Shown piece after piece: positions 4,479 through 40,570 of a stretch of 64,000 bases of DNA (position 1 is its first letter; each line of letters opens with the position of its first letter). Source of the DNA: Candidatus Uhrbacteria bacterium (GTDB lineage Bacteria > Patescibacteriota > Patescibacteriia > UBA9934). The translations under genes and the position numbers were made by a program. The DNA lies in contig DOZH01000005.1 of the NCBI GenBank assembly GCA_003518105.1, positions 40,513 through 104,512 of the forward strand. Direction: 5' to 3'. The notes below the pieces were generated by a model, which saw only the letters and a list, made by a program, of their open reading frames with translations, had not been told where the DNA came from and searched no databases.

Positions 4479-5333
4479 TTATTTATCACCTCTAAATTTC
4501 TTCAACAACTTCATATCCTCTTCCCTGTTCCCCGGCTCCTCTTCATCATCAAACGGCGTTTCAAGAATCAGGTCAATATGCTTTAACTTCGGGTGCTCAA
4601 CCAAATATTTAAATGCATCCGCGCCAATAAAGCCATGTCCTAAATGCTGGTGCCTATCTTTATGTGCCTCAAATTCCACCTTACTATCATTACAATGACT
4701 CGCCACTAACTTATCGAGCCCAATAATCCTATCAAAATCAGCAAAAGTTTTGTCGACGTCGGCCTTGGTCCGCAAATCATAACCACTAGCAAAAGCATGT
4801 TGCGTATCAAAACACACGCCAATCTTCTTACCCCGCTCAGCACCAGCAATAAACGCCGCAATTTCTTCGAACGAATCACCCATTACCGCCCCAGCGCCGG
4901 CACTTATTTCGATGAGTAACTGGCAACTACCCGTATACCCATCCATTATTCGGTCGAGGCCCTTAATCACCAACTCCCTCCCCTCCTCCTCACCAACTTC
5001 CTTAGCACTCCCCGGATGAAACATGATCGCCTTCGCTCCTAACTGCGAGCCTCTTTCTAATTCCTCCCGCAAAATCTTCACACTCCCAAACCGCGTTGTA
5101 TTCTTCGCACTCGCCAAATTCACAATATACGGCGCATGAATATACACGTCCTTAATCCCATTCTCTTTCATCGCATTTTTGAACATCTCAGCCTCCTCGT
5201 CCGTAATCGGCTTAGCCGCAAACGCCTGTGGGGACCTCGAAAATATCTGTATCACCTCGCACCCCAACTCCTTCCCTCTTTCTCCCGCCTTCCACAACCC
5301 TCCCGCCGCACTAACATGAGCCCCAAAGCGCAT
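4479..5333 (-). CDS. nfo: Deoxyribonuclease IV (AP endonuclease family 2)
   Basis: MRFGAHVSAAGGL...EVIQIFSRSPQ...HAPYIVNLAS...HCNDSK, typical Nfo. Confidence 0.85.
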   Translation of the reverse strand: MRFGAHVSAAGGLWKAGERGKELGCEVIQIFSRSPQAFAAKPITDEEAEMFKNAMKENGIKDVYIHAPYIVNLASAKNTTRFGSVKILREELERGSQLGAKAIMFHPGSAKEVGEEEGRELVIKGLDRIMDGYTGSCQLLIEISAGAGAVMGDSFEEIAAFIAGAERGKKIGVCFDTQHAFASGYDLRTKADVDKTFADFDRIIGLDKLVASHCNDSKVEFEAHKDRHQHLGHGFIGADAFKYLVEHPKLKHIDLILETPFDDEEEPGNREEDMKLLKKFRGDK

Positions 5334-5342
5334 AAAATATGT

Positions 5343-5873
5343 TTAAGAGTTATCCTTAAAGCCAATCGGTTCACGCTCTTCTTCAACAAAAATCCCCTTC
5401 TTTTTCTTATTGTTTCGTCTTTGTAAGGCATCGAACACAATCCTAAACTGTTCATCGTAAGTCTTCTCCATAAACTCTACACGGAGACGAAGATGTTGAT
5501 CGTCTTGCGACATATTCCTGATACTAACAAAGGTTCTCATTATCTGAATATTAATCGCTATCGCCCGTTTGCTTGTTAATACACTAGATAGCATGGCGAC
5601 TCCTTGTTCTGTAAACATCAGTGGTTTATAGCGCAAACCTTGTTTATCAGCTTTGGAGGTCACAAATTGTGACCTCCAATTTTTCAGCTCAATCGCCGTC
5701 ATTTCGAATATAAAATCAGCAGGAAATCTAGATAAGTTACGTTTTACAGCCTGCTTTAACCGCTTTGTTTCGACACCATATAGTTTCGCTAAATCACGAT
5801 CCATCATGACCTTAGTTTCTCTCAAGACATAAATTTTATTTTCAATTAGCTCAACTGGTAGTAATGCCTTCAT
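5343..5873 (-). CDS. ORF6N-domain (KilA-N-like) DNA-binding protein
   Basis: IENKIYVLRETKVMMDRDLAKLYGVETKRLKQAVKRNLSRFPADFIFEMT matches the ORF6N pattern common in mobile or phage contexts. Confidence 0.7.
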   Translation of the reverse strand: MKALLPVELIENKIYVLRETKVMMDRDLAKLYGVETKRLKQAVKRNLSRFPADFIFEMTAIELKNWRSQFVTSKADKQGLRYKPLMFTEQGVAMLSSVLTSKRAIAINIQIMRTFVSIRNMSQDDQHLRLRVEFMEKTYDEQFRIVFDALQRRNNKKKKGIFVEEEREPIGFKDNS

Positions 5874-29389: not shown

Positions 29390-29509
29390 AACAAAAACTT
29401 CCGGATCAGCCGGGAGTTTTTAGTTCTTGTTTTATCCTTGCAGATGCGTCGACCTAATCAACGACTCTGGGAGGGCGACGATCCGAGGGGTACTCGGATC
29501 GCCAGGCGT

Positions 29510-30043
29510 TCAGGTGAGCTTGAGGAACTTGGGAGCCTCATTCATCACCCGACCACGGATCACGATGTGCGGCGGTTCGTTCTCGGCCGGCAGCAGGTGT
29601 GCCTGCCAGTACAGCCGGTCGAAGTCATCGTGGTCCGGAGAGCGGCCTTCACCGTCGCGGACGACGACCTTCATGTCGAGCTGGAACTCGTTGAAGTCGT
29701 GCGGGTTGGCTTCGACCCTGCCCGCCTTGTCCAGGTTCCAGAAGGCCGCACCCTCGGCCTGGTCGAGACCCAGGAACCAGGACGCATCGCTCTGGCTGTT
29801 CTCCGAGGTGTGGATGCTGTCGCACAACTTGTCGAGGAAGTCCTCTCCAAGCTTCGCCACCTCCTCGGCCGTCGGCTGCCAGTCGATCTCCCCATCCGGC
29901 TTCGCGATGAAGAACGACCGCAGGCGCGGATTCGTCTCGAGCCCTTCCAGGGCGTCGCGCGCCGTTTCCGGCAAGCGCTCGGGGAAGAAGATGATGGCGA
30001 CAGTGACGACACTGACCTTGGAGGGATATTCGTTGCTTTCCAT
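29510..30043 (-). CDS. Hypothetical protein (GC-rich orphan)
   Basis: The only one of five overlapping ORFs with balanced composition. GGAGTATTGAATG start context. Upstream TTGACA, 17-nt spacer, CATTAT. Confidence 0.5.
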   Translation of the reverse strand: MESNEYPSKVSVVTVAIIFFPERLPETARDALEGLETNPRLRSFFIAKPDGEIDWQPTAEEVAKLGEDFLDKLCDSIHTSENSQSDASWFLGLDQAEGAAFWNLDKAGRVEANPHDFNEFQLDMKVVVRDGEGRSPDHDDFDRLYWQAHLLPAENEPPHIVIRGRVMNEAPKFLKLT

Positions 30044-30620
30044 TCAATACTCCATGTTGTTTCGAGTCCACTGAGCAGGATGATTCCCGCTCAACAGACC
30101 CAAAATAATGCCATGAACAGTGGGAATTGTCAATCTCGTTATATTACCTTATCGGTCACTATCATTCCCCCCCCCTGCATTACCTGCTTCCCAATCACAC
30201 CCATAATCGTATCGACGATAGTACTCGGGTGCTTAGCCATTTTCTGCAGCTGCGGTCCAACTTTCTTAATGTAAGCATCACCCAGGGTCGACGGTGAGAT
30301 AACGGTAAACGGCAGATAGAACGCTTCGACCACATCGTGGTAGTGCCGATTAAGTTCGTTTACAAACGAACCGAGACCAGAATTCACCAAACCATACAGA
30401 ATCAAATCCTTCGGTTTATTGTTTGGTGAACCAGCACCCCAAATCATCTGAATCGGTGTGGTGCGGTTCGTGTATTTCTGCACTATTGCCTTGGTTAAGA
30501 GCACACTACCCACCAGCTTCGCGCCAAAGCAGCTCTTAATGCCATCTTGGTCGAGCTCCTCCTGGCAGGTACCCCGCAAACTAGACACATTGTCTCGTTT
30601 CAAGGCATATTCAATGCCAT

Positions 30621-30878
30621 ATGCCTCGCCATACAGATCAGAGCACTAAGAACGAGATATTGTCAGCTATTAAAGACGGCCTAAGTGTGGCCGACGCTGC
30701 CATTAAATATACTAAACCTACTCAAACCATTTATGCTTGGCTACGAGGCCAAGTAGATAATATTGGCACCAGTGCTCTTGAAGTCGCTAAGTTACGGCGA
30801 GAAAACACTGAACTTAAAGAAATAATCGGCTGGCTGACGTTAGAAAAACGTCGCGGGGAAAAAAATCACAGAGGCTAG
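30621..30878 (+). CDS. IS3-family transposase OrfA (HTH)
   Basis: 85 aa with an HTH region and leucine-zipper-like tail (LEVAKLRRENTELKEIIGWLTLEK). Ends just after an A7 run (30859-30865). Confidence 0.8.
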   Translation: MPRHTDQSTKNEILSAIKDGLSVADAAIKYTKPTQTIYAWLRGQVDNIGTSALEVAKLRRENTELKEIIGWLTLEKRRGEKNHRG

Positions 30879-30885
30879 GCGTCGT

Positions 30886-31704
30886 ATGTCTGCCAGTAAA
30901 AACAAGGCCGAGCTAGCTAAAAAGCTCGGTGTTAGCCGTTCTTCACTCTACTACCGCCCTAAACGTCCCAAAGATGACGAAGCTCTCAGAGACCGCATCC
31001 TAGCCGTCCAGACAGAGCATCCAGCCTACGGCCACAAGAGGATTGCCATGGCTTTAAAGCTCAACAAGAAGCGTATCCGACGAGTCATGAAGAAGTTCAA
31101 TCTTCGTCCTCGTATCCTGCGGGGTCGGCCAACCAAGCGAGATGACAGAGGCAATTTGCCAACAAAAGTACCCAATCTCGCTAAAACTATCTGCCCAATC
31201 CGAGCTAACGTGCTCTACGCGGGCGACTTCACTTACATTCCCTGGGATAATGGCTTCGTTTATGTAGCCACTGTGCTTGATGTTTTTACGCGAGAGATTG
31301 TGGGCTGGCACATTGGCCTCCACCACACCACCTCCCTCATTACGGAGGCCTTCCTAGATGCTGTACGGAGAACTGGAGTGGCACCCCAGATCTTCCACTC
31401 GGACCAGGGTAGCGAATATGTGAGTGGCAGCTACGAGCTACTCCTGGCAGCCCACGGCACTAAGGCCTCACAGAGCAAGAAATCATCCCCTTGGGAAAAC
31501 TGCTACCAAGAGTCGTTCTACAGCGGCTTCAAGCTCGAGTTTGGCAATCCAACTCGTTTCCATGACTTAGGCGAGCTTGCCGAAGCAGTCCACCGCCAGA
31601 TACACTATTACAACACAAGGAGAATCCACACCGCACTCAAGATGCCACCAGTTACTTACAGGGTTCACCAAGAGAACAAAATAGCAGTCCTCATGACCGC
31701 CTAA
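30886..31704 (+). CDS. IS3-family transposase OrfB (DDE/rve integrase core)
   Basis: YAGDFTYIPW...LDVFTREIVGW...HSDQGSEY...ENCYQESFYSGFKLE...YNTRRIH. The frame is open from 30844 and is +1 relative to OrfA. Confidence 0.85.
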   Translation: MSASKNKAELAKKLGVSRSSLYYRPKRPKDDEALRDRILAVQTEHPAYGHKRIAMALKLNKKRIRRVMKKFNLRPRILRGRPTKRDDRGNLPTKVPNLAKTICPIRANVLYAGDFTYIPWDNGFVYVATVLDVFTREIVGWHIGLHHTTSLITEAFLDAVRRTGVAPQIFHSDQGSEYVSGSYELLLAAHGTKASQSKKSSPWENCYQESFYSGFKLEFGNPTRFHDLGELAEAVHRQIHYYNTRRIHTALKMPPVTYRVHQENKIAVLMTA

Positions 31705-32886
31705 TACCCAACTAATTTATTGTTTTGAAAGGTTATTAGTGTGTTTAAAGAACGGGGTACCTGCCATCCAATATTCCATGTCCGCCCTCAGCGTCCGCCA
31801 TCATCAATACCAAATCGAGACTCTTCACCTCGTTTAGCAACTTCGCAATACTTTTCTCACTTGAAATATCACAAGCTCGTTCGTGCCAACCAGCCTTGTC
31901 GACATTTTTAGCAGTCCGGCCATACAACCAAATCTCATAGCCCAACTTATGTAAGGCGACGGCGACGTAGCGGCCAATCGACTTGGTCTTAGTGCCGGCA
32001 ATCAAAGCTGTCTTGCGGGCTGGCTTTTCGGCAAAGAAAAAGCCCCAACCCATCTTGTCGTTCTCAACCGCGCTGACAATTCCCTCGTAACGGTTCTTCA
32101 ATTCCGTGTAAGTGCCATCAATCTTGTTCTCATAAGCCTTCATCTTCTTGGCTAGCTTGCCGTAGGTCCAAATCATATCTTGGTCGCGCTGTTCGGCCTT
32201 AACTATCTTCAAGCCGACCGCCTGTAAAATCTGCTGGTACACCTTAAACGAGAAGCCCTCGTTCCAGTTAACCATCTTATACACCAAGTCATGTTCATTC
32301 GACGTCAGCTCACTCTGCGCCGCCTGCGCTAAAAAGTCAGCCAAGGCGAACACGCCACCTGGCGCTAACAAGCGGTACACATTTTCATATAATGCCTGTT
32401 TGTCGGCCACGAGCATAATCGCGTCCTGGCTAATGACGTGCGTGAACATCTCGTTCTTCGGAAATACTTGGCTCAGTTCGCTAGCACTAGCGCGTACAAA
32501 CTGCACTTTAACTTTTGGCAGCTTCTTAGCCTTGCGCTCAGCATTAAGTTCACGCACATAAATCTTCGCGTCCTTAATCTGCTCGTCGCTCAGGTCGACG
32601 CCGACGCCACTACAGCCGAACTTTGCACACAGCTCAATAAGCGTCTTGCCCGTCCCACAACCAACGTCGAGCACAGTCGAGCTCTTACTAATCGGCGCAA
32701 TCGTTTCAATATTTTCTAACAAGTGTTCAGTCGCCTGTTTGTAGGCCGTGGGGAGCGAATCAGTTTCCTTCTTAAACAAACCAACGTGCAGCGTATGCGC
32801 CGCCTCGTCCCACGTTTCATCGTAATATTGCTTGAGGAAGTTGAACTTAGTGCGTGTGGTCTTTTCTTGTTCGTTAATCATATTGG

Positions 32887-34338
32887 TTATTTATCGTTCA
32901 TTAAGTAGCTCGTCATCTCGCCCAGCAACTTGTACGTCTTCACCTTGATCGACTCCTGCGTCTTCCAGCCTGCTCGGTAAGCCAGCACATTATTCGCCAA
33001 CTCTTTATGCAGCTTCCAGTCTTTCTTATCCGTCATCGGTAGCCCTAAAATATCTTTCCTTGGCAAGCCTGGGTAGACGTCGAGATAAGCGAATATTTCT
33101 TTCTTCGTCATTCTCTCGGTCAACGCTGTCTGGTCGATGGCATTCCCATCCGCCGTATTAATGAACATCGCCACGTTCTTCATCGCCTCGATGAACTTCT
33201 TATCGATCACATTCTCTGCCTTATGTGCTGGCACATGAAGTGAAATGACATCACTCACTCTTGCTAGTTCATTAATCTCTTTATATTTAATGCCGAGCCT
33301 CTCTTCGATTACTTCATTTCGCCGCTTCGAATAGTAGATAACCTCGAAGCCTAAACCCTTCGCCATCCTCGCCACTTGCTCACCAATCCTTCCTAGTCCC
33401 ACGAGTCCAAAAATCTTATCGGCGAATTCATAATCGGACGTTACTAGAGAATTGACGTCGACCAACTTCCTAGGCCACATCTTCTCTATCTTAGTGACCT
33501 CAGCTTCAGGTGTTAATCGTTTATCATAGTAGATGAGTTCATTCTCCGCCAAAAACTTATAGGTCGACGCTAGCGTAAAGTCGGTAATGCTTCGCTCTTC
33601 GATGATGACGCCAAACGTTCGTAAAGCTTTCACGGTCTCCTCGGCCTTTTCAATATTCATCAGGCCAATCATCTTATGCTCAATCATCCTCTCTGGAATC
33701 AACTGCTCTAAACTCTTCTTAGCAAAGTCGAACTTAACTTGCCCCAACTTATGAAAGTGATGTGAGAACTTTCCCAGCCTCGTATTCTTCTCATTCTCAG
33801 GCAGCATTCGAATGCGAGTAAACACGTCATTCAAAATCGCATTTGCCAGTCCCACTTCACTACTAGCCGAGCCATCACTCGCATAATTCCTCATCAATAA
33901 CTGCCACATGCCAGCAAACACCACTTCAGCCACCGCTTCCGTGCCATAGTCAGGAATATTCTTCACCTCAATTCCCAACTCGCGAGCGAGGTCGACGTTA
34001 ATCCTGTGCTCCTTTTCATGCGTCCAAAAAATAACCAGCTTTAATTGCGGGTTCAATCTTAATATCTCATCCGGAATATTCGTCCAGCAACTAACAATCA
34101 CCTCAGCTCCCTCCACCCGATTCATCAACAACTGCAGCGGCGTATTATTCGCGCCGAGCTCGGTGTAACACTTAGTCTCGGCAAACAACTCTGGCTGTTC
34201 ACTAAATTGCTGTTCTAATCTCTCTGGCAAACTCGACGGAAACTCCAACACCTCCTCCGCCAGTTTATTCAACAGCGCACGATGCTCCGGGTAAAATATG
34301 ACAGTATCGAGTATCACCACTTTCTTAAACTTCTTCAT
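32887..34338 (-). CDS. D-isomer-specific 2-hydroxyacid dehydrogenase-like protein with an extra N-terminal domain
   Basis: C-terminal half has FGLVGLGRIGEQVARMAKGLGFEVIYY and ISLHVP...FINTADGNAIDQTAL. 483 aa is longer than the usual family size. Confidence 0.65.
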   Translation of the reverse strand: MKKFKKVVILDTVIFYPEHRALLNKLAEEVLEFPSSLPERLEQQFSEQPELFAETKCYTELGANNTPLQLLMNRVEGAEVIVSCWTNIPDEILRLNPQLKLVIFWTHEKEHRINVDLARELGIEVKNIPDYGTEAVAEVVFAGMWQLLMRNYASDGSASSEVGLANAILNDVFTRIRMLPENEKNTRLGKFSHHFHKLGQVKFDFAKKSLEQLIPERMIEHKMIGLMNIEKAEETVKALRTFGVIIEERSITDFTLASTYKFLAENELIYYDKRLTPEAEVTKIEKMWPRKLVDVNSLVTSDYEFADKIFGLVGLGRIGEQVARMAKGLGFEVIYYSKRRNEVIEERLGIKYKEINELARVSDVISLHVPAHKAENVIDKKFIEAMKNVAMFINTADGNAIDQTALTERMTKKEIFAYLDVYPGLPRKDILGLPMTDKKDWKLHKELANNVLAYRAGWKTQESIKVKTYKLLGEMTSYLMNDK

Positions 34339-34502
34339 AGCAAATTCTTCTCATTATTAGCCGCAAACATGTCAGATCAAAAAACGTCACTGACCAAGTA
34401 GAATATCATAATTATACGTAAAAGTCAATGTAATTGCACTATAATTTGGCCTGATGTATAATAAAAATATACGCTAGTTACACAAATAAGCGCAAAATCC
34501 CT

Positions 34503-35279
34503 ATGATTACCAACACCGAGGTGAAACAAAATCTTTACACTTCCCTCAAGGAACTCGGTCTCACCGAGAGCGAAGCCAACCTCTACCTCACCTCCTTAAC
34601 CCTCGGCTCCGTCACCATCGTCTCTTTAGCCGAGCATCTCAGCATGCCCAGGCCCAACGTCTACAAAGTCATTGCCGGGCTGGAAAAGCACGGTTTAACT
34701 AAGTTTTCCGAACGTAAAAAGCAATCTCGCACTTTTGTAGTGGAGCCGCCAACCGTCGTCCTGGAACTATTACGCCGTAAACGCGAAGCCATGGCCAGCT
34801 TGGACCAAACCCTCGTCGGTTCCATGCCAGACCTGCTCGCGCTCTACCATCAAGGCGAAACCCCCACCAAAATCAAAGTTTACGAGGGGGAGGACCAGTG
34901 GAATAAAATTTTCTTTAAAGTTCTGGACGAAGCTAAAGATAAAATCGACTTCTTTGGTTCCGCCGACGCTTTCATCGGCCTCATCTCCTGGGAAACCGAA
35001 CTCGAATGGATCCGCCTCCGCACCAGCAAAAACATTCACATGAATTCCCTCCTCACCCCCGGCGCCGACGCTGCCACGCTCGTTCAAAACGACAAACTCC
35101 AAATGCGCACCACGCGCATCTTCCAAGGCACCCTCCCCTTCGTCACCGGCTTCATGCTCTACGCCAACAAGGTAATCATCTGGCAGCCCAAAGCCCCCCT
35201 CGCCGTCCTCGTGGAAGATGAATACATCGTGGCCATGCTCCGCAGCATCTTCGCCGCACTGTGGACACAAAGTGCATAA
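34503..35279 (+). CDS. TrmB-family HTH transcriptional regulator (paralog 4)
   Basis: LKELGLTESEANLYLTSLTLGSVTIVSLAEHLSMPRPNVYKVIAGLEKHGL. Confidence 0.75.
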   Translation: MITNTEVKQNLYTSLKELGLTESEANLYLTSLTLGSVTIVSLAEHLSMPRPNVYKVIAGLEKHGLTKFSERKKQSRTFVVEPPTVVLELLRRKREAMASLDQTLVGSMPDLLALYHQGETPTKIKVYEGEDQWNKIFFKVLDEAKDKIDFFGSADAFIGLISWETELEWIRLRTSKNIHMNSLLTPGADAATLVQNDKLQMRTTRIFQGTLPFVTGFMLYANKVIIWQPKAPLAVLVEDEYIVAMLRSIFAALWTQSA

Positions 35280-35285
35280 ACTCTC

Positions 35286-35360
35286 AGGACGACTTCGGGA
35301 GTCGTCCTGGGCCTGCAAACATTGATAAGGACGACGTTCGACGTCGTCCTTTGCACTTTT
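35286..35360. repeat. Double-hairpin REP-like element, copy 3 (core inverted)
   Basis: AGGACGACttcgggaGTCGTCCT + GGGCCTGCAAACATTGATA + AGGACGACgttcgaCGTCGTCCT + TTGCACTTTT. The spacer is the reverse complement of that in copies 1 and 4. Confidence 0.7.
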
Positions 35361-35378
35361 ACTATCTCTGGTTCACGA

Positions 35379-35705
35379 TTAAATAGCTAGTATTTTTCTT
35401 AACTTATCTTTCACTAACTTATAAGCAGTAGTCTCTAATTTACCAAGTTCTCCCAACACAATCTTTTTCTGTAAAGTAGCAATCTTATCCGTCCTAATAA
35501 ATGAGTCAGCCTTCAGGCCATTAGTTTGACTAGCCTTAATCCGAACATCAAAATTACCCAATTTGGCCTGTTTGACGGATGAAATGAATACCACAATGAA
35601 ATCCTCACCGCCTTTTTGTTCATAGAGCACCAAGCCGGGCCGTACTTTATGGCCAGACAGGTCGCTAAAAGGAAACGGTATTAAGACAATATCTCCTTTA
35701 GACAT
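35379..35705 (-). CDS. PemK/MazF-family toxin
   Basis: MSKGDIVLIPFPFSDLSGHKVRPGLVL, typical of the MazF/PemK N-terminus. Confidence 0.8.
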   Translation of the reverse strand: MSKGDIVLIPFPFSDLSGHKVRPGLVLYEQKGGEDFIVVFISSVKQAKLGNFDVRIKASQTNGLKADSFIRTDKIATLQKKIVLGELGKLETTAYKLVKDKLRKILAI

Positions 35706-35949
35706 AGCTTTTCTTAAGATCAGCTACTGAATATAGATCTGGTTCCTCGTTTAGGAAATCAAAACTCCGCGACAAAGCATTAATATTTGTAATCTCGTTC
35801 AAATTTTTATTGTAATGATTGGGAAATTGAATGACAATGGCATCAATAGAATTACGTCGACCAATTCCAAAAACTTCTCCGTGCATTTTTACACGGTCAA
35901 TCACCTGCTTAATATTCTTTCGAGCCTCAGTAGTAGTAATAACCTGCAT
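35698..35949 (-). CDS. Putative cognate antitoxin
   Basis: 8-nt overlap with the toxin gene. MQVITTTEARKNIKQVIDRV resembles Phd/YefM-type N-termini. ORF open to 36021. Confidence 0.55.
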   Translation of the reverse strand: MQVITTTEARKNIKQVIDRVKMHGEVFGIGRRNSIDAIVIQFPNHYNKNLNEITNINALSRSFDFLNEEPDLYSVADLKKSYV

Positions 35950-36022
35950 ATGTACAAATTGTACAATATTGCACAATGAAGCGCAAGACCAGGCCAAAAT
36001 AAGCCAAATAAACATCTCCATC

Positions 36023-36067
36023 CAAACAAAGAACCGCCCACCTGAGCAAGCGGCTCAGTGTGGGCGG
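36023..36067 (-). terminator. Intrinsic terminator of the radical SAM operon
   Basis: On the minus strand: CCGCCCACACTGAGC-cgctt-GCTCAGGTGGGCGG followed by TTCTTTGTTTG. Confidence 0.65.
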
Positions 36068-36125
36068 CGAGTTGCCGTAGTGAAGTTTTACTCGATAGTT
36101 GTCTCCTCCTCAGTTGTTGAATTGT

Positions 36126-37646
36126 TTACGCAAAAGCACACTGCCAAGCCTCAATCGTCTGCACATCGGACGACTCCTTCACCCACCGGATCATGCCCTC
36201 CTCGATCTTACGAGCAGTCATGTCGTTGGTGTTGTGGTGGGTGCTGAACAGGTTGTAGCCTGCCCAGTCGTCCGGGTGGACGATGTTGTGGCCGTTGCGT
36301 TCGAACCACCTGGTGCCGGGCAGCATGGTGGCGGACAATGGCAGCGCCGTGTCGAGGTACCCGTCCACAATCAACTTCCTGGAAGCAGCCATGTCTTCCG
36401 CGAACGTCTCGTGTGTCTGGTCTGGCGTACCGACCATGATGCTCGTCAACACGTACACTTTCGCCGAGCGCAGCTTTTTCAGGTTCTCCTTGCTGTTCTC
36501 GTACTTCGTGGTCATCGACCCTGCTGAGCTCTGCTTCTCGTTTCCCTGCCGCGGATTAAACGGCACATACAGTGAGAAACACTTGCCCGGCCTACCGTCG
36601 TTGTACGCCATGATAGCCGCAGTGACCTCATCCGACAGGCTCTCGAACTCGACGCCTCCGTTGTCGGACCACGAAAGTCCCCGCTGCTTCATCTCCCCGA
36701 GCAAGGGAATGAAGAACTCCTTCGGGCGGGAGAGAATCGCGTCGTCTTGCAGCACGATCTCCTGGTAGCCGCAGGCCACAAAGTGGTCGAGCTGCTGCCG
36801 GATCTTGTCCCAACCTGACTGCGTGACTTTCTGTTCCGGACGCCCGGCAAAGCAGAATTCGCAATGACGGTAGCACCCACGGCTGGCCATCCAGTCAATC
36901 GACTTCAACCCCGAGGGGAAGTTGTGCGTCGGCGGGGTGGAGTAGCCAGCGTCGGCCAAGAGGTCGCAGTTCATGACCGGGTACGCCTCCATCTTCTGGA
37001 AGCCCCCTGGCACGATCTTGTCCTTCAGTCGACCGGCCATCATGGCCTCAATGGTCGTGATTGCATCTCCCTCTGCCACGTGGTCGACCCACGGGTTGTC
37101 CCGCACGAATTTCACGGGATCGGCCGTGATGTGCTGACCGCCCATGACAACGCGGACGTGCGGCAATTCCCGCTTGATCCGCGCGCCGAGCGAGGTCGCA
37201 GCCAAGTAGTTGGCGGACGCCGCGAGCGGAATACCCACGGCCTCGATGTGGTGCCGGCGCAGGTACTCAATCGTCTCCTCCTCGGGGATGCCGATCCGCG
37301 CGATGATGCGCTGCACGCTGCCATCTTCCCTGAACGCCGAGTACTTCTTGATGAAGTCAGTCGACGACAGCTTGTGGAAGTCGTACATCTTCTCCTCATG
37401 CACTTCCCCCCACGTCCGGTTGAGGGCTTCCTCGTGGATGCCGCGCTGACCTGGCCACAGCGTGCGAACGCAGAGCTCACGCCGTTGCCAGCCACCGTTG
37501 TGGACGGACTCGTCCAGGAAGTGGACCTTCCAGCCCTTATTGAAAAGTAGCGAGGCCATCAAGGCCGGACCAATCTGCACTCCGCCACGGGGCGGCTCAT
37601 GGATGGCATCGACCTGGCGCAGGGGAGAAACGAATGCGACGTTCAT
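36126..37646 (-). CDS. B12-binding-domain radical SAM enzyme (GC-rich cargo 5)
   Basis: 506 aa. N-terminal cobalamin-binding-type region, then ASRGCYRHCEFCFAG (CxxxCxxC). Several overlapping ORFs are GC artefacts. Confidence 0.75.
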   Translation of the reverse strand: MNVAFVSPLRQVDAIHEPPRGGVQIGPALMASLLFNKGWKVHFLDESVHNGGWQRRELCVRTLWPGQRGIHEEALNRTWGEVHEEKMYDFHKLSSTDFIKKYSAFREDGSVQRIIARIGIPEEETIEYLRRHHIEAVGIPLAASANYLAATSLGARIKRELPHVRVVMGGQHITADPVKFVRDNPWVDHVAEGDAITTIEAMMAGRLKDKIVPGGFQKMEAYPVMNCDLLADAGYSTPPTHNFPSGLKSIDWMASRGCYRHCEFCFAGRPEQKVTQSGWDKIRQQLDHFVACGYQEIVLQDDAILSRPKEFFIPLLGEMKQRGLSWSDNGGVEFESLSDEVTAAIMAYNDGRPGKCFSLYVPFNPRQGNEKQSSAGSMTTKYENSKENLKKLRSAKVYVLTSIMVGTPDQTHETFAEDMAASRKLIVDGYLDTALPLSATMLPGTRWFERNGHNIVHPDDWAGYNLFSTHHNTNDMTARKIEEGMIRWVKESSDVQTIEAWQCAFA

Positions 37647-40385: not shown

Positions 40386-40570
40386 GGTGACCTCCTAGGT
40401 CGGTTATTTGTTGTGTAACTCGGGCCCGGTTGCTATCCCCAGGCTGTAACCATAATATCCTAAAAGCGGACTTTTGTCCAGAAAAAAGACACTAAATTAT
40501 AGTAAATTACCAAATAGCTTGTGTTAGTTAGCTAATATGCTACACTACTGTTGTCTAAATAACGGACAGT

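Follow-up and report, generated by a model that had tools for sequence, protein, structure and literature searches.

The classical insertion sequences (IS) IS911, IS3, IS150 and IS2 use programmed -1 ribosomal frameshifting at A_AAA_AAG/A. How is the fused transposase OrfAB made by an IS3-family element in which orfB lies in the +1 frame? This question is raised by a 1204-bp element on contig DOZH01000005.1 of a metagenome-assembled genome of Candidatus Uhrbacteria bacterium (assembly GCA_003518105.1), of which we analyzed a stretch of 64,000 nucleotides (positions 40,513 to 104,512 of the forward strand; hereafter the window, to which all coordinates refer). The open reading frames (ORFs) orfA and orfB of the element overlap around a run of seven A's (A7). 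A first-pass annotation of this DNA had assumed that IS3 elements need a -1 shift and had proposed either that a 1-nt homopolymer change inactivated production of the fusion or that expression relies on slippage at the A run. The comparative data back slippage and lend no support to inactivation, because the +1/A7 arrangement is conserved lineage-wide. The assumption of a -1 shift is correct for the classical subgroups, of which we examined IS2, IS3 and IS150, but IS1447 of Clostridium (Acetivibrio) thermocellum (IS120 in ISfinder), an IS3-family member that combines a +1 orfB with an A9T run, is a published exception (Liu et al., 2018; PMC6211511). Since +1 slippage has already been published for IS1447, the feature is less surprising than the annotation assumed: the conserved recoding site is of a type already demonstrated experimentally, and what is new is the element, not the kind.

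Reading frames and family of the element

The anatomy of the element, its insertion, its family membership and the conservation of its +1/poly-A layout are direct observations. Its coding layout is as follows:

30563..31766, plus strand: complete IS3-family insertion sequence, 1204 bp, bounded by inverted repeats and a target-site duplication
30621..30878, plus strand: orfA, 85 amino acids (aa), the DNA-binding/regulatory part, with coiled-coil-like LRRENTELKEIIG
30844..31704, plus strand: orfB reading frame, open from 30844, ATG at 30886, stop at 31704, 272 aa, with the DDE (rve) catalytic domain
30859..30865, plus strand: A7 run, the proposed recoding site, inside the orfA/orfB overlap

[quoted passage not shown] The -1 frame closes at 30916, 18 codons past the run, and the classical combination of a -1 orfB with an A6G/A7-type heptamer is absent. 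Expressed modulo 3, the offset between the two genes is 1 in the window whereas it is 2 in IS2, IS3 and IS150 of E. coli K-12. Because an independent Logan assembly (L082) contains an exact copy of the 1204 bp, A7 included, at this insertion site, we rejected a sequencing or assembly error at the homopolymer. The deposited records name OrfA a hypothetical protein (HCC83504.1) and OrfB an IS3 family transposase (HCC83505.1).

Assignment to the IS3 family, which the first-pass annotation had also made, is borne out by OrfB, which scores 222.2 bits against the NCBIfam model NF033516 transpos_IS3 (cutoff 160; model positions 103-369) and matches the Pfam families rve (81 bits), rve_2, rve_3 and HTH_21. 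Residues D114, D173 and E209 of OrfB are invariant in an alignment of 27 sequences and lie in the motifs GDFTY, HSDQGSEY and NxxQES; the triad has a DD(35)E-like spacing of 59 and 36 residues, and K216 follows seven residues after the E. OrfA weakly matches the N-terminal portion of the IS3 model and is conserved in relatives, and its helix-turn-helix (HTH) assignment is weak (HTH_23, 16.4 bits, below cutoff). IS3-family elements have TG...CA ends, duplicate 3-4 bp of target DNA and measure about 1.2-1.55 kb. The TG...CA ends, the 3-bp duplication, the length of 1204 bp and the two-ORF layout of the element all fit this description, and it shares with the classical members the hidden Markov model family, an HTH/zipper OrfA followed by a DDE OrfB, and the same form of ends and duplication. 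On these sequence features we place the element in the IS3 family, the frame of orfB being its sole atypical feature. The +1 frame does not exclude membership because the IS1447 subgroup is +1 too (PMC6211511). A sequence search of the PDB with the fused OrfAB returned nothing at E <= 0.001, and an Rfam scan of the element with permissive E-values gave no match, known frameshift elements included. The element is intact and probably still functional.

Conservation of the +1/poly-A layout

We gathered 160 related loci from genome and metagenome contigs. For the 155 that were analysable, the window included, we determined the frame relation of orfA and orfB and the homopolymer in their overlap:

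orfB in +1, 114/155: A7 in 42, A8 in 44, A9 in 22, shorter or no run in 6
orfB in -1, 40/155: A5-6 then G4-5, A7G, or A8-A9; several with in-phase A_AAA_AAG/A
orfB frame ambiguous, 1/155

A run of 7-9 A's is thus present in 108 of the 114 +1 elements. Where OrfB is at least 57% identical to that of the window element, every analysable entry (34, the window element counted) is +1 with A7-A9, and in this close clade the run never falls below seven A's. A 35th entry at this identity, L040 (Candidatus Uhrbacteria), was called ambiguous ('in frame') by the automated procedure; direct reading of its junction gave +1/A7T, and this copy may have an additional indel elsewhere. The three closest relatives (84-88% identity) share the GGGGAAAAAAATCAC context of the A run without change, and the gene coordinates of P0001 (86% identical) describe an 85-aa and a 272-aa gene at a 265-nt offset, all as in the window. 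When 5.8 billion proteins were searched with the conceptual fusion, the best 120 hits included no in-frame OrfAB; the longest was 324 aa and the widest coverage 78% of the query. One long-contig genome contains two distinct +1/A8 elements, each in three copies (99.7-100% identical) with differing flanks. Elements with the +1 layout occur in multiple copies at different sites and therefore transpose. Taken across relatives, the evidence indicates that the +1/A7 layout is the native, conserved design of this lineage and not a lesion.

Both shift directions occur in the lineage, always at poly-A. Forty members more distant from the window element share the -1 orfB with the classical elements, several with A_AAA_AAG/A in phase. 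Of the 108 +1 elements whose run has seven or more A's, 93 end it at orfA codon position 2, 13 at position 1 and 2 at position 3.

The junction between the two frames was analyzed in 26 unique sequences of the A7T clade. In all 26, removal of one A from the run yields an open frame that leads into OrfB through a conserved junction, ...KR[G/A]EK-I-x-x-x-R-x-x-M.... The orfA frame ends 2-13 codons past the run, mostly at the fifth, with a tail that shows little conservation; in the 18 nt from the run to the orfB ATG variability peaks at the third positions of the +1 frame. The T that follows the run is invariant in this clade and, in the fused frame, is the second base of an Ile/Met codon. From this conservation we infer that an OrfAB fusion is read across the A run.

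The +1/poly-A arrangement, previously shown for one Firmicutes subgroup, is therefore common in a second, distant IS3 lineage (114/155 of the loci sampled), with A7 recurring as the shortest run kept by selection. This broadens the case for transcriptional slippage as a regular route of transposase expression in the IS3 family. Annotation pipelines built around a -1 shift in IS3 elements will overlook the fusion or label such copies as defective. The chief value of the locus lies in annotation and in the evidence for widespread +1 poly-A recoding in a second IS3 lineage.

One sub-lineage contains both frame relations around a single context, ttaatgcttgA(n)cgggag: the four loci L148, L151, L154 and L161 have A8 and a -1 orfB, whereas L156 has A7 and a +1 orfB, so that a difference of one A reverses the required shift direction. 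Either such a flip is tolerated via bidirectional transcriptional slippage, or it marks a dead copy.

Probable route to the fused transposase

The closest functional parallel is IS1447. Among its cDNA clones, 9/52 had one A fewer and 8/52 one A more, the loss of one A being put at about 16% of transcripts; at least seven A's are required, relatives of IS1447 have runs of 7-9 A's, and a stem-loop lies beside the run (PMC6211511). The window element resembles IS1447 in its +1 orfB, in a homopolymeric A run at the end of orfA with a T directly after it (A9T in IS1447, A7T in the window), in 3-bp duplications and, less certainly, in a stem-loop predicted beside the run. It differs in length (1204 bp vs 1447 bp), in its ends (TG and short near-perfect repeats vs TA and 48-49-bp imperfect repeats) and in the codon position at which the run ends (position 2 vs position 3). 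The fused OrfAB is 27% identical to that of IS1447, and OrfB is 29% identical to IS1447 OrfB, 28% to IS150 InsK and 26% to IS2 InsD, with a partial match to IS3 InsF (35% over 112 residues). Liu et al. included elements as IS1447-like at 35% identity or more over at least 50% coverage, and the members of their subgroup are mutually 57% identical. We rejected membership of the window element in the IS1447 subgroup on the basis of the 27-29% identity and the different end structure. IS1447 and its relatives reside in Firmicutes, whereas the hosts of the window lineage are largely members of the candidate phyla radiation (CPR)/Patescibacteria; CPR/Patescibacteria lineages are named in 38/80 genome records of the lineage. 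In 72,556 plasmid records the nearest relatives reached at most 36% identity, and papers on IS3 elements in Patescibacteria did not turn up in a full-text search. By analogy, the element would work like IS1447 while belonging to a separate IS3 lineage.

The route to OrfAB that we consider most likely, and hold to be probable, is the loss of one A during transcription. In a minority of transcripts, RNA polymerase would slip on the A7/T7 tract and omit one A, giving an A6 mRNA from which an active OrfAB of ~360 aa with the junction ...RRGEK-ITEARRRM... would be translated. Unslipped mRNA would yield OrfA and probably also OrfB from its own ATG, and such split expression would hold the transposase level low. 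The slip may be assisted by a predicted structure directly upstream of the run:

30830..30857, plus strand: predicted nascent-RNA hairpin with the core GACGUU-agaaa-AACGUC, ending 1 nt before the A run; minimum free energy -11.8 kcal/mol

This hairpin has a z-score of -2.40 relative to dinucleotide shuffles and of -1.85 relative to synonymous recodings, and a role as stimulator of slippage is plausible.

Several comparisons favor a slip of the polymerase. Families that mix +1 and -1 clusters at poly-A indicate transcriptional realignment according to Antonov et al. (2013; PMC3711429), and because both directions occur at poly-A in the present lineage this criterion points to a transcriptional slip. 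The same is suggested by the retention of at least seven A's, which equals the minimum in IS1447 and exceeds the four A's needed for a +1 slip of tRNA. In a survey by Baranov et al. (2005), IS elements were found to exploit runs of 8-9 A's (PMC1088944), and several IS use +1 transcriptional realignment whereas none was known with +1 ribosomal frameshifting (Atkins et al., 2016; PMC5009743). In a Roseiflexus IS630-family element, hairpin-dependent transcriptional realignment takes place at T5C5 (Penno et al., 2015); as described in PMC5009743, a nascent hairpin directly upstream of the tract promotes the loss of a nucleotide and thereby gives access to the +1 frame. Both this element and the 9A/8A elements of Baranov et al. 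(PMC1088944) obtain transposase from transcripts that lose or gain a base at a slippery tract, and they share with the window lineage a run length conserved among homologs without indels. They differ in that they belong to other IS families and have other slippery motifs, and in that the window hairpin is predicted only and weak across relatives.

A number of observations weigh against a polymerase slip or soften the case for it. The transcriptional nature of the slip is suggested by the analogy with IS1447 and by comparative patterns, and the 155 loci are not phylogenetically independent, so that their counts represent a pattern and not a statistic. A7 is the lower limit of slippage in IS1447, and the usual threshold lies near nine A's (Baranov et al., 2005; PMC1088944). 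The largely constant phase of the run (codon position 2 in 93/108) fits a phase-dependent ribosomal mechanism, although shared ancestry could explain it too. As for the hairpin, 19 sequences give a mean z-score of only -0.74 against synonymous recodings, compared with 0.03 in a control segment, and the RNAalifold consensus of the 19 A7T relatives is weak, with 4 pairs only in a gapless alignment of 46 columns; most relatives can form an equivalent stem, but the registers differ. Finally, the ATG of orfB is kept in 26/26 sequences of the A7T clade, which makes separate translation of OrfB plausible as well.

This last point is also an argument for a reading without any recoding, in which OrfA and OrfB act separately, OrfB starts from the ATG at 30886 and the A run merely encodes lysine. 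IS1447 and other IS3 members indeed make a separate OrfB too, but in the IS3 family it is the OrfAB fusion that acts as transposase (PMC6211511; PMC5009743). Moreover, the +1 frame between run and ATG is open and its peptide conserved over 7-8 codons in 26/26 sequences, with variability following the +1 phase, and the retention of at least seven A's in the overlap of 108/114 +1 relatives goes beyond what lysine coding needs, since AAG is available. We therefore regard the absence of recoding as very unlikely. An even smaller probability attaches to the view that the window holds a dead copy, whose -1 or in-frame register was broken by a 1-nt deletion (A8 to A7), an insertion (A6 to A7) or a sequencing or assembly error. 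Homopolymers are prone to indels, with an eighth A the site would become A_AAA_AAA, phased for a classical -1 shift, one sub-lineage has both A8 (-1) and A7 (+1) variants, and the element is single-copy in the window and known from one place only. The comparative data nevertheless largely refute this view: the independent assembly has the same A7, the motif is identical in relatives at 84-88% identity and every analysable relative down to 57% is +1, an in-frame fusion is absent among the best 120 hits, and a single genome harbors several copies of +1 elements of the lineage. The perfect duplication and the intact DDE triad likewise argue for recent activity.

A ribosomal shift is the more serious competitor, although we consider it a minority prospect. 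Here, P-site tRNA-Lys on AAA would slip +1 (or -2) in the A run, perhaps driven by the Shine-Dalgarno-like GGGG/GCGG directly 5' of it. A runs are shifty for tRNA-Lys (reviewed in PMC5009743), and prfB provides a precedent for a Shine-Dalgarno-like push in a +1 shift. In the A7T clade the run always follows G[G/C]GG and has the constant phase GAA AAA AAT. The conserved junction does not discriminate, because a +1 slip of the tRNA and loss of one A from the mRNA both give ...GEK-ITEA..., so that the two mechanisms are inseparable by sequence alone. However, AAA_A would suffice for a +1 slip, yet at least seven A's are present in 108/114 +1 elements; the A8/A9 relatives lack a conserved 5' context; neither AAU nor AAG, the codons in the A site, is rare or a stop; and the phase varies, the run ending at codon position 1 or 3 in 13 and 2 of the +1 elements, respectively. 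In the A7T group a tandem -2 slip would be expected to mispair tRNA-Asn on AAA. The dearth of precedent also counts against it, no IS with +1 ribosomal frameshifting being known as of the 2016 review (PMC5009743). It is unlikely, in our estimate, that the lineage is an undescribed IS3 subgroup whose +1/poly-A layout evolved independently of IS1447 and which could use G-GAA-AAA-AAU, with stimulation by the adjacent G-rich sequence, for +1 (or -2) ribosomal frameshifting, a mechanism undocumented for any IS.

Insertion site, element ends and neighboring genes

The boundaries of the element and the gene that it interrupts comprise the following features:

30563..30589: left inverted repeat (IRL), exact over 14 bp at 30563-30576, starting with TG
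31740..31766: right inverted repeat (IRR), exact over 14 bp at 31753-31766, ending with CA
30560..30562: left copy of the TCC target-site duplication, 3 bp, by direct reading
31767..31769: right copy of the TCC target-site duplication, 3 bp, by direct reading
31770..32881, minus strand: 5' part of the methyltransferase/SDR (short-chain dehydrogenase/reductase) gene, codons 1 to ~371, with a class I S-adenosylmethionine methyltransferase and the start of a Rossmann/SDR-like domain
30139..30562, minus strand: 3' part of the methyltransferase/SDR gene, last ~140 codons, aligning to 5114-5538 of the syntenic relative L081 with 79% DNA identity
30582..30611, plus strand: promoter-like site TAGACA - 18 nt - CATATT, in or just past IRL and 10 nt 5' of the orfA ATG, from a consensus scan

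The exact 14-bp repeats, the TCC duplication and the length of 1204 bp are all present as the first-pass annotation had placed them. The left end, TGGCAGGTACCCCG, occupies 30563-30576 and its reverse complement 31753-31766; the repeats extend to 27 nt with 78% complementarity. The termini, TGGCAGGTACCCCG ... CGGGGTACCTGCCA, have the 5'-TG...CA-3' form expected for the IS3 family, and the core ...GTACCCC... of the repeats resembles the IS150 ends, TGTACTG(C)ACCC(C). The DNA alignment with L081, which represents the empty site, confirms these boundaries. Neither blastn nor tblastn detected a second copy of the element in the window, and the exact OrfB is present on 10 contigs that have one shared neighborhood throughout.

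Deletion of the 1204 bp together with one TCC produces a single minus-strand ORF of 511 codons (32881..30139) reading ...ADAEGGHGILEELDQDGIKSCFGAK..., in agreement with the protein of about 510 aa that had been predicted to result from excision. The rejoined protein matches Pfam Methyltransf_31/23/25/11/12 and CMAS above cutoff and, weakly, adh_short (24.8 bits, cutoff 26.6; residues 290-401). It has 67 homologs, most of them single Patescibacteria proteins of 500-512 aa with both domains, and several are named SDR family oxidoreductase. The best of these, P0121 on L081, is intact, 512 aa long and 88% identical. The claim of a methyltransferase/SDR-like fusion gene is thereby supported by single full-length homologs of ~508 aa; both halves align to one homolog, so the refuting condition that the first-pass annotation had set, halves without a common homolog, does not hold. 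The DNA of L081 aligns to the window at ~83% identity and continuously save for a break at the element, where window position 31774 passes to 30561. Because the homology to L081 breaks at the ends of the element and L082 carries the same element, the insertion is not a chance configuration. We conclude that the element inserted antisense into the methyltransferase/SDR fusion gene, duplicated TCC and knocked the gene out. The gene is conserved in many Patescibacteria, and in a genome of ~1 Mb its loss may matter. That the insertion is recent, as had been proposed, is plausible given the perfect duplication and the intact gene halves, but the date is loose: the event is younger than the split from the relative at ~83% DNA identity.

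The promoter-like site in the left end is a weak lead, since the consensus scan found no more sites in the element than in shuffled sequence. TAGACA is likewise present at the left ends of the relatives L046 and L070, the ends of which also contain a GTACCC(C)-related core. Transposition in the IS3 family follows a copy-out-paste-in route via a circle that bears a junction promoter, and in IS911 and IS2 circularisation is known to assemble a promoter from a -35 and a -10 box. The multi-copy relatives in genome CAVXKL01 (L046-L048 and L070, L071, L073) have right ends that terminate in TTGACA and left ends with TATTCT ~17 nt inside, given a 3-bp spacer; upon circularisation, these could join as a -35/-10 promoter. 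The ends of the window element itself, CTGCCA / CAAACT, fit this junction-promoter pattern less well. A search for target duplications of L046-48 and L070/71/73 with BLAST-defined ends identified none.

The gene order in L081 is 2-hydroxyacid-dehydrogenase-like, methyltransferase/SDR, NDH-2-like and integrase-family. Comparison of window positions 32887-37646 with L081 1-5539 places the methyltransferase/SDR gene in a conserved cluster together with a 483-aa 2-hydroxyacid-dehydrogenase-like gene, a TrmB-family regulator and a B12-binding radical-SAM gene; the cluster of the relative additionally holds a choline-kinase-like gene. The methyltransferase/SDR fusion itself is conserved at ~508 aa across many Patescibacteria. 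This neighborhood hints at a pathway for the modification of small molecules, possibly of a phospho-base.

A GC-rich stretch of ~740 bp (29399-30139; 59% G+C vs 51% for the window) separates the NDH-2-like gene from the 3' end of the methyltransferase/SDR gene and is missing from L081, where the two genes stand 45 bp apart. It contains one ORF of 177 aa (29510-30043, minus strand) without Pfam match and looks like a second, unrelated insertion beside the IS. Farther along, at 35379-36021 on the minus strand, a gene for a PemK/MazF-like toxin (108 aa, Pfam E = 1.7e-14) and, upstream of it, one for a Phd/YefM-like antitoxin (weak match) stand where L081 has a 320-aa gene of the choline-kinase/APH family. 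By tblastn, no trace of this L081 gene was found in the window. Two genes of the conserved neighborhood therefore differ between the two genomes.

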